Shown here one piece after another: positions 7,371-61,857 of a DNA stretch of 64,000 bases. The first letter of the stretch is position 1. Each line of letters begins with the position of its first letter. A model generated the notes under the pieces. That model saw nothing but the letters and a program-made list of their open reading frames with translations, made no database searches and was not told the origin of the DNA. Made by a program: the position numbers and the translations under genes. This DNA comes from a virus: the IMG/VR virus record IMGVR_UViG_3300024496_000030, positions 19,117 to 83,116 of that record. One strand, 5' to 3'.

Positions 7371-7952
7371 TCAACGACGATAACGGAAAGGCTCAACCGT
7401 TGCACGCTTGAGATCACCAAATGCACGACGCTTTTCAGCTTGTGCAGATGCTGCTAAACCAAGTTGTTGTTGCATCGACAGGTTGCGTGCAGCTTGAGCA
7501 GTAGGAGATAACTCCTTCGTTTCAAAAGCTTGCATCTGACGATTCAGCTCCTGGTTGCGCATGTACTCTGTGAAGGGGAGTGATGCAGCACCAAACGCTG
7601 TAGCAGCGCCAAGGTTTAAAACGTTTTGCTTAGCTTCTGACTCCAGGAGATCTTGTTGTAGTGCTCTGGATAATTCCTTATAAGCATCTACATTTAAACC
7701 AGTTGGAGACAAATCCTGTGCACCAGCAACAGAAGGTGGTTGCGCAAAATATTGAAAAGGTTTGGCAACATCGCCAATTGTCTTTTTATATTCTTCTAAA
7801 GCAAGATCAATCGTTTTGCCAGTATTAAAATCAATTCCTTTGTATTTACCAAAAGCAGCTTTTAATTTATCAAGATCAATTTTATTACTAGCCGTTGCTC
7901 CAAAATAATTTGGTGTCGTGGACTGATAAAAGCTGTTGAAATCTTGAGGCAT
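7371..7952 (-). CDS. putative internal virion protein
   Basis: Q/A-rich, late block. Confidence 0.6.
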   Translation of the reverse strand: MPQDFNSFYQSTTPNYFGATASNKIDLDKLKAAFGKYKGIDFNTGKTIDLALEEYKKTIGDVAKPFQYFAQPPSVAGAQDLSPTGLNVDAYKELSRALQQDLLESEAKQNVLNLGAATAFGAASLPFTEYMRNQELNRQMQAFETKELSPTAQAARNLSMQQQLGLAASAQAEKRRAFGDLKRATVEPFRYRR

Positions 7953-12323: not shown

Positions 12324-14774
12324 TCATAACTCATATGGGTTGCCTACAAAACGAGCATAACGGCTAACTGCTTTTTGCACTGGGCTTGCAGTACCACGTT
12401 TTGTACCTTGTGGATAAGAAAGGGGAACTGGAACAACTTCTGTAGAAGGTGTAGTTGGAAGGGTCACTTCACCTGACAATACTTGCTTTACTAATTCAGC
12501 CCGTTGACGCAGAACCTCTGCTTCTTGAGCGCGGGGGCTACCAGGAGCAGGTGGTTGCCAGGTGGAGAAGCGTGTTCCCATTGCAGCCGGTGCACCACTT
12601 TCACTGATGGCACGGCCTTCGCGGATGCTTGCAGGAATGGTGGCGCCAGGGGTAACGCGACTTGCTACACGACGACCACTTGCACGGGTAGCCTCAATAC
12701 GGCGACGGGCTTGAGCAGCTTGCTGACCACCCATGGCTTGTTGGCTATAAGCAAGACCCGTGGTGGGATCAAGCACTTCAGGTGCTGCTTCTGCCAGTTG
12801 AGCTAAAGCAGCAGGATCAAAAGAGCGTGGATCAATGACTTCAGCACTAACGCCTTTAAACGTGCGGCCTTCACGTCCCATAATTCGTTGGGGTTCTACA
12901 GCAGTGCCGCGTACTGCGCGGACTGCACCACCCAATAGGTCTTCCCGCTTGACCTGGCCTTCTGTCAGGATCTCGCCAGTGTCCACATTTTTGTAGAGGA
13001 AGGGAGTTGCTTCAATGGCACTGCCCTCTCCAGCAGTAAATCCTTCTGCAGCCAGTGCTTCGCGGCGACGACCAACACCACCAACTTCCTGACGACCTGC
13101 ACCACCAGCAGCACGCATCCGGTAGTACTGACTTGTGGGCATCCCTTCCACTTCAGGAACTACACGCGATCCCACAACTTCACCAGTGGTTTCACTGATG
13201 ACGGGAACTTCACGGATGCCTTGAGTAACTTCAGGGCGCAATTTATAAAGAACACCCGTTGCTTCTGCTTGCGCTAGGCGATTGCGTGCCGCTTCACTTG
13301 CAGCAGCTGTTTCACCCAGCAACTTCTTGGTGCGTGGATCTAAGGTTGCAAGTTCTGCTTGAGATGGTTGATAGGTAGAAGGAACACCAAGTTGTTCTAA
13401 TGCACGAGCTTTCATCTTGCTCTGCATGTTTAATGCAGCCTGCAGAGATTCAGCACGGCCCGTTGTAACAGGAACACCGGTTTGTGGATTGACGGTTTGG
13501 CCAAAAGCTTCGTAGAGAGAACCAGTTGGAACACTTTCACCAGAAGGAAGTGTTACACGAATCGGTAAACCCGGTGCTTCGCTGTAGGCAGAACGGATTA
13601 CGCCAGGGTCACCCGTTGCTTGGAAGATTGCTTCTGCTTGTTTCTGTACAGTGGCTGCACGTGGATCAGCAGAAAACACACGTTGCACACCAGAAAGAGA
13701 ACCCTGTGGGATAGGACGTTGCGTTCCTAACAATCCCCTAAGCGTTTCACCAGATTCCACAAAATTTTCTGGAGGCATCTGGCGAATGTTGCGTTCAATG
13801 TTGGTAAAGAACGGAGCATTAGCTGCTTCTGTCACGCGACCCGTCATTGGGTCCAGCACAGAACCTGGCGACAGACGTTGCCGCATTTGTTGCATGGATG
13901 CAGTCTCTAATGCTGGGCTGCTGTATCCAATCTTCTGCGTGAACTGCAAAATGCGGGATTGAATGTCAGGATCAACGCCAGTACCTGTGGTCTGCGTTCC
14001 AATGATGCTTTGTTCTGCTGGAGCAACCATGGTTTGACCGGCGCTACCAAGAGCAGATTCACTCCAGGGGTCTGGAATCCGTGATTTCAGGGACTGATGA
14101 ACACGAACTTCCGCAGGAACCACGTTTTGCGCCCGCACAATGCCGGGTGCAGTGTCATCAATCGCAGAAATGCCGTGTTGTGCTACAGCAAGAACGTTTT
14201 CTGCACCTTCACGGGTAACAAAACTAGGTTCAGCTGCTTCTTTGGCTAGGCCAAGCGCGGATTTAACCTTTGCCTTAGCGCGTTGACCCAGATCACGCAC
14301 CATTCCACCGACGCGTCCCACGCCAAGGTCAGTGCCGGTCAGTTTTTGGGCACCATACACGCCAGCAGCAACAGCACCGACCCCTAACGCCCCTAATGCA
14401 GCCTTTTCAAGGAGTGATTTTGGCTGCTCAGTACCACCAAACCCAGTTTCATAGGCATCATCAGCGTGATGCTGGACATAATGCTGCCCCGTCAGGCTGT
14501 TATTGAGCTGTCCTGCAACCTTTGGGATGTTGTTATCCGGTGTAATAGGCGACTGCAGGAGCGTATTGTCCCCATAATGCCGCACAGAGATGGGTTGATC
14601 GTAAACAATATCTCCTTGAAAGCCTTGAACCTCATCAAAACCGCGAAATTTACCAAATCCTCGGTTGAAATCATACACTTCAGGAGCTAAACGTGCCTTT
14701 TCCTGTGCAGTTTTAGGGTATGGATTGCCAGTTGCAGCTGCCCACAGTGCATAATCTTGCGGAGAAACGGGCAT
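12324..14774 (-). CDS. large putative internal virion/ejection protein
   Basis: ~816 aa A/G/Q/P-rich with one TM-like segment; ATG 14774 preferred over the TTG start at 14813. Confidence 0.7.
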   Translation of the reverse strand: MPVSPQDYALWAAATGNPYPKTAQEKARLAPEVYDFNRGFGKFRGFDEVQGFQGDIVYDQPISVRHYGDNTLLQSPITPDNNIPKVAGQLNNSLTGQHYVQHHADDAYETGFGGTEQPKSLLEKAALGALGVGAVAAGVYGAQKLTGTDLGVGRVGGMVRDLGQRAKAKVKSALGLAKEAAEPSFVTREGAENVLAVAQHGISAIDDTAPGIVRAQNVVPAEVRVHQSLKSRIPDPWSESALGSAGQTMVAPAEQSIIGTQTTGTGVDPDIQSRILQFTQKIGYSSPALETASMQQMRQRLSPGSVLDPMTGRVTEAANAPFFTNIERNIRQMPPENFVESGETLRGLLGTQRPIPQGSLSGVQRVFSADPRAATVQKQAEAIFQATGDPGVIRSAYSEAPGLPIRVTLPSGESVPTGSLYEAFGQTVNPQTGVPVTTGRAESLQAALNMQSKMKARALEQLGVPSTYQPSQAELATLDPRTKKLLGETAAASEAARNRLAQAEATGVLYKLRPEVTQGIREVPVISETTGEVVGSRVVPEVEGMPTSQYYRMRAAGGAGRQEVGGVGRRREALAAEGFTAGEGSAIEATPFLYKNVDTGEILTEGQVKREDLLGGAVRAVRGTAVEPQRIMGREGRTFKGVSAEVIDPRSFDPAALAQLAEAAPEVLDPTTGLAYSQQAMGGQQAAQARRRIEATRASGRRVASRVTPGATIPASIREGRAISESGAPAAMGTRFSTWQPPAPGSPRAQEAEVLRQRAELVKQVLSGEVTLPTTPSTEVVPVPLSYPQGTKRGTASPVQKAVSRYARFVGNPYEL

Positions 14775-15024
14775 TTTTATAAATATACCTAGATATAACG
14801 ATTTTAGGTGCAATCAATACAGTACCAACGCCAGGAGAAACCCCCTAACTGCCTTAGAAATACCCATTTCATGGTAAAAATCCGGGCAGACATCAAGCTC
14901 GCTCTGCTCGCAGGCGGGTGCGAGAGGAAAAAAAGAAAGGGGCGGGGGATATGCTCCCTCCGGTCGCGTTAACAGCCGGAAGAGAGAGTTCTATTCGGTT
15001 GTGTTCTTTATTTTATTTATCGTC

Positions 15025-15186
15025 ATGATCTACAGCGTGGAGATCAAGGAAGCGGGCGATGATTTTAGCCAGGCGTATATGTCTGGCTGCGAGGAGAAGT
15101 TTCATTCGGAGAAGGAAGCAGAAGAATATCTGCTGACGTTCGAAGAATGGGAACGTCCGATGCTTTGCATTCGGAAGTACGAATGA
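15025..15186 (+). CDS. small acidic early protein
   Basis: First plus-strand ORF; ATG 15025. Confidence 0.55.
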   Translation: MIYSVEIKEAGDDFSQAYMSGCEEKFHSEKEAEEYLLTFEEWERPMLCIRKYE

Positions 15187-15227
15187 AGATTAGGGGGAGC
15201 AACCGCTCCCTCCGGTCGCTTTTTGAG

Positions 15228-15352
15228 TTTTCCACAGGCTATTTTTACCCTATTTCCACCCTATTTTCCCTCAAATCCCTGTCATACCAAGGCTTCTGAC
15301 TACTATTTGCCTGGACATGTGTCACAACATGGCTTGCACTTTTTCCACAGGC
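15228..15352 (+). promoter_or_regulatory. two DnaA-box matches (TTTTCCACA at 15228 and 15341) with tandem TATTTYYACCC repeats
   Basis: Match the TTWTNCACA consensus; both extend to TTTTCCACAGGC. Confidence 0.5.
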
Positions 15353-15541
15353 ATCAAATCTTTTTACTGGGATCTCAGCGACGATTTGAAGGCTGTTTGG
15401 CTGTTTGTCAGCCTTATCTTCAACCCTGATTTTTATATAACTAGAAATACTTTTAGCAAGATTACCCAGAAGATTGCCTCCAGGAGCTATTTATTCCTCC
15501 TAGATGCAGTCCTCAGACTGCTGTTCTTTGCTTGTTTTCTC

Positions 15542-15718
15542 ATGGAGAAGTTCGGTGCTGCAGTGTGCTGCGTTGCTATCGGCATGGCAGCTTTCACTCA
15601 GTTAACGCTTCACTTGCTTGATCAAGCTACGGCTGAGCAATGCAAGAACCATGCGTGGCCTGCACACGCTGACCAGGTGCACCGTGACTGGTGCATCGCT
15701 AACAACTACGAACTCTGA
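15542..15718 (+). CDS. small membrane-anchored early protein
   Basis: 3' part of track ORF 15317..15718, from ATG 15542. Confidence 0.55.
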   Translation: MEKFGAAVCCVAIGMAAFTQLTLHLLDQATAEQCKNHAWPAHADQVHRDWCIANNYEL

Positions 15719-15722
15719 TCTC

Positions 15723-15914
15723 ATGATCACGATTACTACTGAAGAAGGTCTCCTTCTCACTGATCAACGTGGCAACTATCTATACGATGGGCGCCAGGGT
15801 GATCCTGTTCTCATCGAAGCGCCAGCAGGTCCAATCCGCTTTGGGTTGGAGGACATGCTGCGTTTCTGGACGACGTACTGCCAGTACGGCGACTATCAAC
15901 TTCACCTGTGGTGA
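15723..15914 (+). CDS. hypothetical early protein
   Basis: 3' part of track ORF 15618..15914, from ATG 15723. Confidence 0.55.
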   Translation: MITITTEEGLLLTDQRGNYLYDGRQGDPVLIEAPAGPIRFGLEDMLRFWTTYCQYGDYQLHLW

Positions 15915-16001
15915 GTTTCCGCTCCCTACGGTCGCTTTCATACTGTATTAATCAGTAGAGAAAGTTCAGAACAAATTGTCCATCATTACCTTCTCATTCC
16001 A

Positions 16002-16229
16002 ATGAATCTCTTTAACAACCTTGTCAAGGCCAGCATTGCCGGTGGCGTTGTCATCGGTGGTGCTGTTGCCTACGCCAAGCTGAATGACGAGCAGCGTCAG
16101 AAGCTCAACTCTGGTGTCAACAGACTGCGCCGCAAGGTGTCAGATCTAATTGCACCAAATGATGGTGTTTATACCATCCCCAAGGAAGTCGAAGCGGAGC
16201 TAGAAGCTCTGCTCAACGACGACAATTGA
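16002..16229 (+). CDS. small membrane-anchored protein
   Basis: N-terminal Gly/Val TM segment. Confidence 0.65.
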   Translation: MNLFNNLVKASIAGGVVIGGAVAYAKLNDEQRQKLNSGVNRLRRKVSDLIAPNDGVYTIPKEVEAELEALLNDDN

Positions 16230-16303
16230 TGGTCCCTCAGAGGGAAGCGCCATGCTTCCTTCTCTGTGATCTTCATTGATCACGTTCTTCGCATATTCCA
16301 TCC

Positions 16304-16528
16304 ATGGAATCTTTCATCTACGAGAAGGGCAACGACGGTTATCTCGTCACCATCCGTGGTGATTTTGCAGAGATGACCAAGGTTGACCTTGACCGTCAGG
16401 TGTCCAAGTACATCCGCTTGGAGGCACCTGTCGAGCATATCCGCTCCAGTGTGAAGAAGCTGCTGCACCAGGGTTATAAGCTGAGCAATCAGCTAGAACT
16501 TGGTTGGCAGCGTTTCATCGAAGCGTAG
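16304..16528 (+). CDS. hypothetical early protein
   Basis: ORF track; stop codon abuts the ribozyme. Confidence 0.65.
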   Translation: MESFIYEKGNDGYLVTIRGDFAEMTKVDLDRQVSKYIRLEAPVEHIRSSVKKLLHQGYKLSNQLELGWQRFIEA

Positions 16529-16594
16529 GACGAAACCGGAGGGTGCTATCCGCTCCCTTCGGTCGCTCCCTGCTATGGGGAGCCTGATGAGTCC
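16528..16594 (+). ncRNA. hammerhead ribozyme, type II
   Basis: GGAC-GAAA-CCGGAGGG..CCCTTCGG-TC^-GCTCCCT..GGGGAGC-CTGATGA-GTCC: complete core, stems I-III intact, GUC cleavage after 16564. Confidence 0.88.
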
Positions 16595-16608
16595 CTGCTT
16601 TGCTCACC

Positions 16609-16866
16609 ATGTCACTTTCTGCTTTCCTCATTAACTTCATGAACCGCCACCGTGATCAGCTACCTGCTTACGTTGGCATTACTCTTGGCATGGGTATCGG
16701 CGGACTCCTGTGCGTTAGCTTGAACAAAGCGATTAATGCCAGGATCCTTGCAACCTGTGACAAGAACCTGAATCAAATCATCTATATCAAGACAGCAGTA
16801 GGTGATAGCTACGGCTGTGTATCCAAGATGGTATTGAACGGGCCACCAGCTCCGATCAAACCATGA
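16609..16866 (+). CDS. membrane-anchored hypothetical protein
   Basis: TM segment YVGITLGMGIGGLLCVSL; ATG 16609. Confidence 0.6.
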   Translation: MSLSAFLINFMNRHRDQLPAYVGITLGMGIGGLLCVSLNKAINARILATCDKNLNQIIYIKTAVGDSYGCVSKMVLNGPPAPIKP

Positions 16867-16927
16867 GAAAGATTTTATTCAATTCATTGATCTTAACGAT
16901 CATCTTTTTGTTCTTCTGCCTCTAGTC

Positions 16928-17221
16928 ATGACTGAACAAATGTATAGCCACGACACAATCTGGCTTCTTCTGCACAACATTCCTCTCATGGATTATGCAC
17001 GCCAGGAGGAGCCAAAGCTGTGGAGAAAGTTCATGGAACTTGTTTCCAATGAAACTGCTCAAGGCTATCCCGATACATGGAACACTACTTTCCTAATCAA
17101 TAAGATTGCGGAAGATCTAGGTTCCTATCAACTGCTTCTAAATATCTGGTTGCAGATAGAGGAGCCGTTGAATGATGTTCTTAATCCCATCCAGCGTGAC
17201 TGGATTGATGCTCAACTATGA
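16928..17221 (+). CDS. hypothetical protein
   Basis: ORF track. Confidence 0.6.
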   Translation: MTEQMYSHDTIWLLLHNIPLMDYARQEEPKLWRKFMELVSNETAQGYPDTWNTTFLINKIAEDLGSYQLLLNIWLQIEEPLNDVLNPIQRDWIDAQL

Positions 17222-17460
17222 ACAACTACACCTTTTATCTGCCTGGAATCAACAAGCTGACTGGTGTAAGCCAGGAGGATTGGGATTTCCTTTGCGAACG
17301 TGCAGCAGAGAACAACGTTCTACCTGCCACGCTTGCCGCCAGGATTATCGCCAACGAGTTGGCTCAATGGCGTGATGAGATTCATTACGCCGATCAACAG
17401 GAAGGGCTTCGTGCAAATGAAGCCATGAACCAAGAGAAAGTTATTGAAGAGATTGTTTAA
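17218..17460 (+). CDS. hypothetical protein
   Basis: ORF track; ATGA overlap with upstream gene. Confidence 0.6.
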   Translation: MNNYTFYLPGINKLTGVSQEDWDFLCERAAENNVLPATLAARIIANELAQWRDEIHYADQQEGLRANEAMNQEKVIEEIV

Positions 17461-17568
17461 TCTTTTCTTTATCTTTCCAGATGTCTGCACTTTGGGATCT
17501 AGGCCTTAGCTTAGTTCCCTTTCTGCAGGCTTCACTTGCCTGCTTTGTACACCTACCTAGACAACACC

Positions 17569-18018
17569 ATGTCTGCTGCTAACAACGGAAACCTGGTCGG
17601 TACCATCGTGTCCGACATCATGACCAAGAATCCCAACGATTCTCTTTCGGTCACACAGTTCCGTGTTGCTCCGCTCGATGCCAGGGAAGAGGATTCTCCG
17701 CTGCCTGTCATCGCTTACAACGGTATCGGTGACAACATCGCCAAGCGCTACAACAAGGGTGACACTGTTGCCCTGACGACGCGCCTGCGTTATGTGACCT
17801 GGATGACGCCAGAAGGTGAGCCCCGTGGCCGCATGGAAGTTATTGTGACTTCCGTAAACACGGTTCGCCTTGGTCAGATCTCAACAGCCCAACGGACTGC
17901 TGAAGCTGCTGGTGTCATTGAAGCGAATACGGTCAACAAATCGCTTCATCCTGTCGCCGCCGCTGCCACCAGGGCTCCTTATGCGCAGGAACCAACCGCT
18001 GAGGTTGTTCCTTTCTGA
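17569..18018 (+). CDS. ssb: single-stranded DNA-binding protein (single OB fold)
   Basis: KGDTVALTTRLRYVTW..GEPRGRMEV pattern; C-terminal EVVPF. Confidence 0.75.
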   Translation: MSAANNGNLVGTIVSDIMTKNPNDSLSVTQFRVAPLDAREEDSPLPVIAYNGIGDNIAKRYNKGDTVALTTRLRYVTWMTPEGEPRGRMEVIVTSVNTVRLGQISTAQRTAEAAGVIEANTVNKSLHPVAAAATRAPYAQEPTAEVVPF

Positions 18019-18130
18019 GCAGAAGGTCAGTCCGACTCTTGCACTTAAACCTTCCGGGTTGGTACAGCTGTACTAGCCCGGTGGTTTTTCTGCAGGATTC
18101 ATCTCCTGCACAATCCTTTGCACATCACCA

Positions 18131-25278: not shown

Positions 25279-25356
25279 AAAAAAATGGACCGGGCACCAC
25301 CCCAGTCCAGAATCTGCTTTGCACACACAGCCTTCAGGATTCCTTTCTGAAGCTGC
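25279..25356 (-). ncRNA. candidate trans-acting small RNA (~78 nt): hairpin, seed, terminator
   Basis: GCAGCUUCAG-loop-CUGAAGGCUGU, unpaired GUGUGCAAAGCAGAUUC, UGGACUGGG-GUGGUG-CCCGGUCCA-U7; promoter TTGCGC-18-TAGACT upstream. Confidence 0.72.
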
Positions 25357-61705: not shown

Positions 61706-61780
61706 GCCCGGATAGCCCAATCGGAAGCAGGCAAGCGATTTAAAATCGCTACAGTGAGGGTTCAAATCCCTCTCCGGGTA
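61706..61780 (+). tRNA. trnL: tRNA-Leu(TAA), short variable loop
   Basis: GCCCGGA/TCCGGGT acceptor, AGCGA-TTTAAAA-TCGCT, GAGGG-TTCAAAT-CCCTC, A73, no encoded CCA. Confidence 0.85.
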
Positions 61781-61783
61781 TAA

Positions 61784-61857
61784 CGGGATATAGCGCAGCT
61801 TGGAAGCGTGCCTGATTTGGGTTCAGGAGGTCGCAGGTTCAAATCCTGCTATCCCGA
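61784..61857 (+). tRNA. trnP: tRNA-Pro(TGG)
   Basis: CGGGATA/TATCCCG acceptor, CCTGA-TTTGGGT-TCAGG, GCAGG-TTCAAAT-CCTGC. Confidence 0.93.

Follow-up and report, generated by a model that had tools for sequence, protein, structure and literature searches.

Type II hammerhead ribozymes are known to flank prophage genes, and a role in the processing of long transcripts of phages has been put forward for them (Perreault et al. 2011, PMC3088659). Intergenic phage hammerheads have been described since 2011, and the element reported here is of this known kind. With the bacterial and prophage examples (PMC3088659, RF02276) it has in common the core, the permutation, the intergenic position in a phage and the proposed role in cutting transcripts. 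There are also differences. While the described hammerheads (PMC3088659) occur in clusters, the present one is found as a single copy per genome. Compared to RF02276, it has a 4-bp stem II with an interrupted extension and a 7-bp stem I, and no pseudoknot of at least 4 bp was found, whereas the tail of RF02276 forms a pseudoknot.

The closest case with demonstrated activity is that of Desulfovibrio vulgaris, in which three type II hammerheads located beside phage-like genes cleave in vivo as well as in vitro (Olzog et al. 2021, PMC8782182), the activity having been assayed by cyPhyRNA-seq (PMC8782182). The ribozyme type and the gene context are comparable to those considered here, while the host and the sequence differ, and the activity that was shown there is a prediction here.

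A further parallel is offered by engineered systems. RiboJ-type insulators, which are attributed to Lou et al. 2012, reportedly consist of an engineered type III ribozyme derived from sTRSV that is placed before a gene leader and gives the mRNA a fixed 5′ end. The hammerhead discussed below likewise lies just upstream of a gene leader, the likeness being one of working principle only.

With the present locus, a covariation-supported hammerhead, fixed at one gene junction, is added to the little-studied freshwater cyanophage lineage related to S-EIVl. What makes it noteworthy is that this fixed junction has two natural alternatives among related phages, that the ribozyme overlaps with a repeat of the early region, and that it falls into a blind spot of Rfam.

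Sequence and fold of the element

The DNA analysed here, called the window, is a stretch of 64,000 nucleotides that corresponds to positions 19117-83116 of an IMG/VR record of 83,116 bases, the latter being referred to as the genome. The nearest named relative of the phage is Synechococcus phage S-EIVl from a high-arctic lake, with 52% amino acid identity over a 744-aa structural protein, and on account of this relationship the host can be inferred to be probably a freshwater picocyanobacterium. A blastn search of positions 15300-17500 against 50,697 phage records gave no match. The features of the locus, which lies between the genes called A and B, are collected in Table 1.

Table 1. Features of the gene A/gene B junction and related loci (window positions unless a contig is named).
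Feature	Position	Strand	Remarks
Gene A (upstream), 74 aa	16304-16528	+	no known family
Stem II extension, 5′ strand	16519-16525	+	end of gene A; pairs with 16596-16602; predicted by MFE fold
Type II hammerhead, complete motif	16528-16594	+	sequence, MFE fold, covariation, own covariance model
Stem II, 5′ strand GGAC	16528-16531	+	partner GUCC 16591-16594; 4 bp, open; G10.1-C11.1 = 16591-16531
Core G12 A13 A14	16532-16534	+	unchanged in 7 of 7 homologs; GAAA = 16532-16535
Stem III hairpin	16535-16563	+	16535-16543 with 16555-16563, 9 bp including one G-U; loop 16544-16554
A15.1-U16.1	16535-16563	+	counted within the 9-bp stem III
Predicted cleavage site	16564..16565	+	after C17 (16564), before G1.1 (16565); based on the GUC triplet (16562-16564) in the consensus
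Stem I hairpin	16565-16583	+	16565-16571 with 16577-16583, 7 bp, the last being U-G; loop 16572-16576
Core C3 U4 G5 A6 N7 G8 A9 (CUGAUGA)	16584-16590	+	only N7 varies in homologs
Stem II extension, 3′ strand	16596-16602	+	gene B leader; part of the 'seed site'; predicted by MFE fold
Gene B (downstream), 85 aa	16609-16866	+	no known family; one hydrophobic stretch
16-nt repeat NGCTCCCTNCGGTCGC	14952-14967, 15204-15219, 15920-15935, 16551-16566	+	early intergenic gaps
166-aa HNH_3 endonuclease ORF	L003:2548-3048 (also in L002, L004, L005, L006)

The order of the motif is 11.x, G12-A14, stem III hairpin, C17, stem I hairpin, C3-A9 and 10.x. Loops close stems I and III, and both RNA ends lie in stem II, which is the type II permutation. 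The conserved core of a type II hammerhead is present in full (CUGAUGA, GAA at 16532-16534, U16563 and C16564), and the pairs adjacent to it are canonical, namely G16591-C16531 (10.1-11.1), G16565-C16583 (1.1-2.1) and A16535-U16563 (15.1-16.1). The sequence-only reading had described an intact type II hammerhead at 16528-16594 with these cores, a 9-bp stem III, a 7-bp stem I and an open GGAC/GTCC stem II, and all of these parts were recovered at the same positions. It had also let the ribozyme start in the stop codon of 16304..16528 and end at an 'sRNA seed' site and the next ATG. The first G of stem II is indeed the last base of the TAG, and the seed motif adjoins at 16595-16607, with the ATG following at 16609, 14 nt after the ribozyme.

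The three-way junction was found to be both the MFE and the centroid structure in RNAfold calculations (-40.1 kcal/mol, z = -3.5, with none of 200 shuffles as good), and the fold is also retained in a 211-nt context. A strict descriptor of the motif matches the 83-kb genome once, whereas 300 first-order Markov shuffles of this genome give no match. With a loose descriptor one weak second match appears in the real genome, which can be accounted for by the 0.4 matches that this descriptor gives per shuffled genome.

Homologous junctions and the Rfam model

Viral contigs were searched with the 74-aa gene A protein, which yielded 15 loci, and two more, L070 and L106, came from a pattern scan. The gene A/gene B junction of L007/L098, L008/L105, L106, L009-L011/L107 and L070 contains a complete type II hammerhead. 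The gene A of these loci is 46-91% identical to that of the window, and gene B homologs come after the ribozyme in L098, L106, L107 and L070. In every ribozyme-bearing relative, the ribozyme starts in the stop codon of gene A, and across the homologs it ends 10-15 nt before the next ATG.

Seven homologous copies, from the window and six related phage contigs, were aligned for the analysis of covariation. In this alignment, 96.4% of the cells are paired, compared to 33-57% in slid controls, and compensatory double changes are seen in 8 of the 20 base pairs (two in stem II and three each in stems III and I). Stem II takes the forms GAAC/GUUC and AGAC/GUCU in relatives, with two of its four pairs altered on both sides, and stem I is GGCCACU/AGUGGCC in the L009/L070 clade. 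The core is invariant in the seven homologs except for N7, which can be U, C or A and is a free position in the consensus. In one homolog, L010, G10.1 is replaced by A, resulting in a mispair next to the core. Since the core is invariant and the stem changes are compensatory, selection acts on the ribozyme fold itself. The covariation backs the earlier assignment of the element as a type II hammerhead located between two genes of the early region, and the comparison of the sequences provides the decisive evidence that the 67-nt element is a genuine and evolutionarily conserved member of this class. A covariance model of our own, built from the 7-sequence alignment, scores 85.2 bits on the window, which is its sole strong match in the genome, and it gives no match in S-EIVl or in two relatives that lack the hammerhead.

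A scan with cmscan against the Rfam hammerhead models, which had been put forward as a check of the sequence-only reading, left the element unscored: no hammerhead was reported for the whole window at the gathering cut-off, nor for a stretch of 321 nt at E ≤ 10. When RF02276 (Hammerhead_II) was run against the whole genome there was likewise no match, the gathering cut-off of 37 bits not being reached. In the printed consensus of this model, stem II comprises 2 bp, stem I is about 9 bp long and capped by a UGG loop, and the 3′ tail is single-stranded and conserved. As a comparison set, we fetched 93 viral stretches by a hammerhead-like pattern, some of the loci overlapping on one contig. The descriptor recognises about 179 complete hammerheads of type II in these stretches, with as many as 12 at one locus. 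In nearly all of them stem II is 4 bp long (GGAC/GUCC and similar) and stem I measures about 7 bp. For the 12 hammerheads that the descriptor finds in L047, RF02276 reports 4, of which 2 are over the cut-off; the corresponding numbers are 2 for the 6 in L025, 0 for the 8 in L045, and 0 for the 5 in five homologs of the present element. The element is thus missed because RF02276 is narrow, most of the clear phage hammerheads likewise escaping it. The miss is a property of the model and no evidence against the ribozyme. More generally, RF02276 passes over a large subclass of phage type II hammerheads.

In unrelated viral contigs (L047, L101, L045, L025, L029, L089 and others), 6-12 type II hammerheads were seen to be packed into 5-9 kb. 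A GGAC/GUCC-like stem II of 4 bp together with a stem I of 7 bp is found in nearly all copies on these dense-array contigs, and most of the copies are under the RF02276 cut-off. The arrays of L047, L045, L025 and L101 resemble the present element in their stem II and in the stem I of about 7 bp, whereas here there is one copy, tied to one gene junction. Elsewhere in the window, two adjacent tRNA genes at 61706-61780 and 61784-61857 (+) match Rfam RF00005 with 57 and 66 bits.

Proposed message splitting and a possible link to the translation of gene B

From the sequence, fold, conservation and covariation described above, we infer cleavage and an effect on the fate of the mRNA. In the reading that we prefer, with a probability of roughly 0.7, the type II hammerhead is selected at the gene A/gene B junction of a rightward early operon of this uncultured freshwater phage, where it cuts one RNA into two messages. 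In the nascent transcript, the 67 nt would fold into the three-way junction and self-cut between C16564 and G16565. The stem III hairpin of 9 bp would close the upstream product, which would carry a 2′,3′-cyclic phosphate at its 3′ end, while the first nucleotide of the downstream product would be a 5′-OH G at the base of the stem I hairpin (7 bp), 44 nt ahead of the AUG of gene B. If the RNA cuts, this hairpin-based 5′-OH end of the downstream RNA would follow from the geometry of the modelled fold. The two products should separate, since they would be held together only by stem II and their predicted association of -7.5 kcal/mol is weak, and the polycistronic RNA would thereby become two messages, each with a structured end and with its own stability and translation. 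In bacterial mRNA decay, 3′ hairpins hinder 3′ exonucleases, and a 5′-OH or a 5′ hairpin hinders the 5′-end-dependent RNase E and RNase J. Because ends of this kind hinder the decay enzymes, the fates of the gene A and gene B messages would be uncoupled, in line with what Perreault et al. suggested for the hammerheads of prophages (PMC3088659).

Metatranscriptome data are available in the form of assembled contigs of a variant strain, and contigs of this type cannot show RNA ends. In three riverine runs there is a gap between contigs that end at 16512-16523 and contigs that begin again at 16582-16598, without loose ends, and in a fourth run one contig, which may be DNA or uncut RNA, bridges the cleavage site unbroken. 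The riverine contigs are roughly gene-sized in the region 15900-18100 and break at each structured gap (~16224-16280, 16513-16581 and 17484-17534). As a sign of cleavage the break at the ribozyme is at most a weak hint and is not counted here, the breaks not being confined to it.

Another option considered was that the main role of a real hammerhead at this place is that of a translation-linked switch for gene B, and not a simple splitting of the message. Stem II and its extension would pair the end of gene A and its stop codon with the gene B leader (16591-16602), and the internal loop predicted in the window (U16526 A16527/C16595) contains the first two bases of the stop codon. In the MFE structures, stem II is extended past a bulge or internal loop holding the stop-codon U in all six of the folded family members (the window and five of five relatives). 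Since the extended stem II spans the stop codon, a ribosome terminating on gene A would, according to the model, have to unfold the ribozyme, and the folded ribozyme is predicted to partly cover the gene B initiation region. Cutting followed by strand separation, or unwinding by terminating ribosomes, would then free this region. The constant placement of the ribozyme, from the stop codon to shortly before the next ATG, and the weak predicted association of the products after cleavage also fit with a switch. However, the stem II extension comes from energy predictions only, and its sequences differ between subclades, and we therefore consider it unlikely that switching is the main role.

The rate of the proposed message splitting is a separate matter. 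In many type II hammerheads, a pseudoknot of at least 4 bp between loop I and the 3′ tail provides a tertiary contact and gives fast rates at low Mg2+. In six family members, no complementarity of at least 4 bp was found between loop I and either flank, and the in vivo cleavage rate is for this reason uncertain. The conserved bulge or internal loop, located 4-6 bp into the modelled extended stem II, may act as a substitute for the tertiary contact.

The motif that had been called an sRNA seed, CTGCTTTGYNCAC, has three exact copies on the + strand, at 16595-16607, 17540-17552 and 25314-25326. The first of these forms the 3′ strand of the predicted extended stem II, and the second is located shortly before the SSB gene. 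With up to 2 mismatches allowed, the window contains 16 matches to the motif versus 15 expected, which is no enrichment.

Natural alternatives at the junction and the 16-nt repeat

In the five closest relatives (L002-L006), whose gene A is 92-96% identical, a 166-aa HNH_3 ORF is inserted in loop I of the ribozyme. The sequence is unaltered as far as loop I (...GCUCCCUGCUAU), where the ORF begins, and downstream of the ORF it resumes at ...UGAUGAGUCC, followed by the same leader and the gene B homolog. The 5′ half of the ribozyme, including the 16-nt repeat, is kept, while the 8 nt that are lost correspond to the 3′ strand of stem I and C3. Since these parts are absent, the ribozyme must be dead in the five relatives, and it is therefore dispensable there. 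The HNH_3 domain of the ORF is over the cut-off with 35.7 bits, and an AP2 match is sub-threshold. Close relatives of the inserted endonuclease were found only on the five contigs themselves, and none in the genome of the window. The leader of the endonuclease ORF was seen to resemble that of gene B.

Free-standing HNH homing endonuclease genes, such as those of the mob/seg type in T4, are found in phage intergenic regions. Judging from its sequence and position, the inserted ORF looks like a gene of this kind that has landed in hammerhead DNA. It is likewise located between two conserved genes, at precisely the place where relatives free of the endonuclease show a conserved sequence, the interrupted sequence here being a ribozyme and the homing putative. 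The conserved hammerhead DNA could be the homing site of the inserted endonuclease, and we consider this more likely than the promoter-insulator arrangement discussed below.

The distant relatives L012-L016 are without the hammerhead and have a terminator-like hairpin at the same gene junction, which suggests that a transcript boundary is wanted there. An intact ribozyme, an endonuclease knock-out and a terminator-like hairpin at the same junction constitute natural comparisons across near-isogenic phages. Because the relatives supply these comparisons at one junction, the role of a phage hammerhead becomes testable at the level of mRNA ends and mRNA amounts.

We now turn our attention to the 16-nt repeat NGCTCCCTNCGGTCGC, whose fourth copy is made up of the 3′ strand of stem III, C17 and the initial two bases of stem I. 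This repeat, in which the centre base varies, is restricted to the + strand and to the gaps that separate the first genes of the early region. Each close relative has 4-6 copies of it, and a degenerate copy is present near 14896 of the window. Many of the copies have a G-rich complement upstream and could form a hairpin in the + strand RNA, and in L098 a repeat variant, GAAG...CUUC, is altered on both sides. On the minus (template) strand, the repeat corresponds to a GCGACC-GNA-GGGAGC triloop hairpin with tandem G-A, which is reminiscent of the hairpin promoters of the N4 virion RNA polymerase.

One possible arrangement is that the repeat is an early promoter from which transcription would start ~5-10 nt past the cleavage site, the ribozyme being a natural insulator fused to this promoter. 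If true, read-through transcripts would receive from the hammerhead a 5′ end that nearly coincides with that of the locally started ones, but we regard this arrangement as improbable. In a related scenario the functional unit is the repeat itself, as an early promoter or as a processing or protein-binding signal, with the ribozyme as an accessory that contributes little. The occurrence of the repeat in the early intergenic gaps of the window and all close relatives is in line with this, as is its intact state in the relatives with a destroyed ribozyme, and no sigma-70-like promoter was found on the + strand in 14700-17700. However, the L009/L070 clade has a complete hammerhead at the same junction, and the repeat is absent from its fetched loci. 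The two are thus separable, with the ribozyme occurring without the repeat in this clade and the repeat without a working ribozyme in L002-L006. The invariant core and the compensatory changes in the stems also argue for selection on the ribozyme fold, and searches in PHROGs, Pfam, PDB sequences and ESM Atlas found no phage RNA polymerase among the large ORFs. It is quite doubtful that the repeat is the functional unit.

The large ORFs searched include one of 829 aa at 12324-14813 (-), which adjoins the early region. It has no match in the same four resources, and its ESM Atlas model has a pLDDT of 0.39. A trans-acting ribozyme directed at the other three copies of the repeat was also considered and rejected, no enzyme strand of the type CUGANGA-stem II hairpin-GAAA with matching arms being present in the genome. 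The ribozyme at the junction is of the cis type, both of its arms being closed by loops.

Finally, it is very unlikely that the motif resembles a hammerhead by chance or is an inactive relic in decay: the silence of Rfam, the loss of the element in close relatives and the 10.1 mismatch of L010 could be read in this way, but strict matches are absent from the 300 shuffled genomes, the eight compensatory pairs and an unchanged core are found although the flanking protein is down to 46-63% identity, and the Rfam model likewise misses most clear phage hammerheads.

The L009-type phage was found to carry a second complete type II hammerhead (L107, minus strand, reverse-complement positions 7481-7538). 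It lies 3.1 kb upstream of the hammerhead of the family and follows immediately on the first early ORF, at a site where the clade of the window has a copy of the 16-nt repeat.
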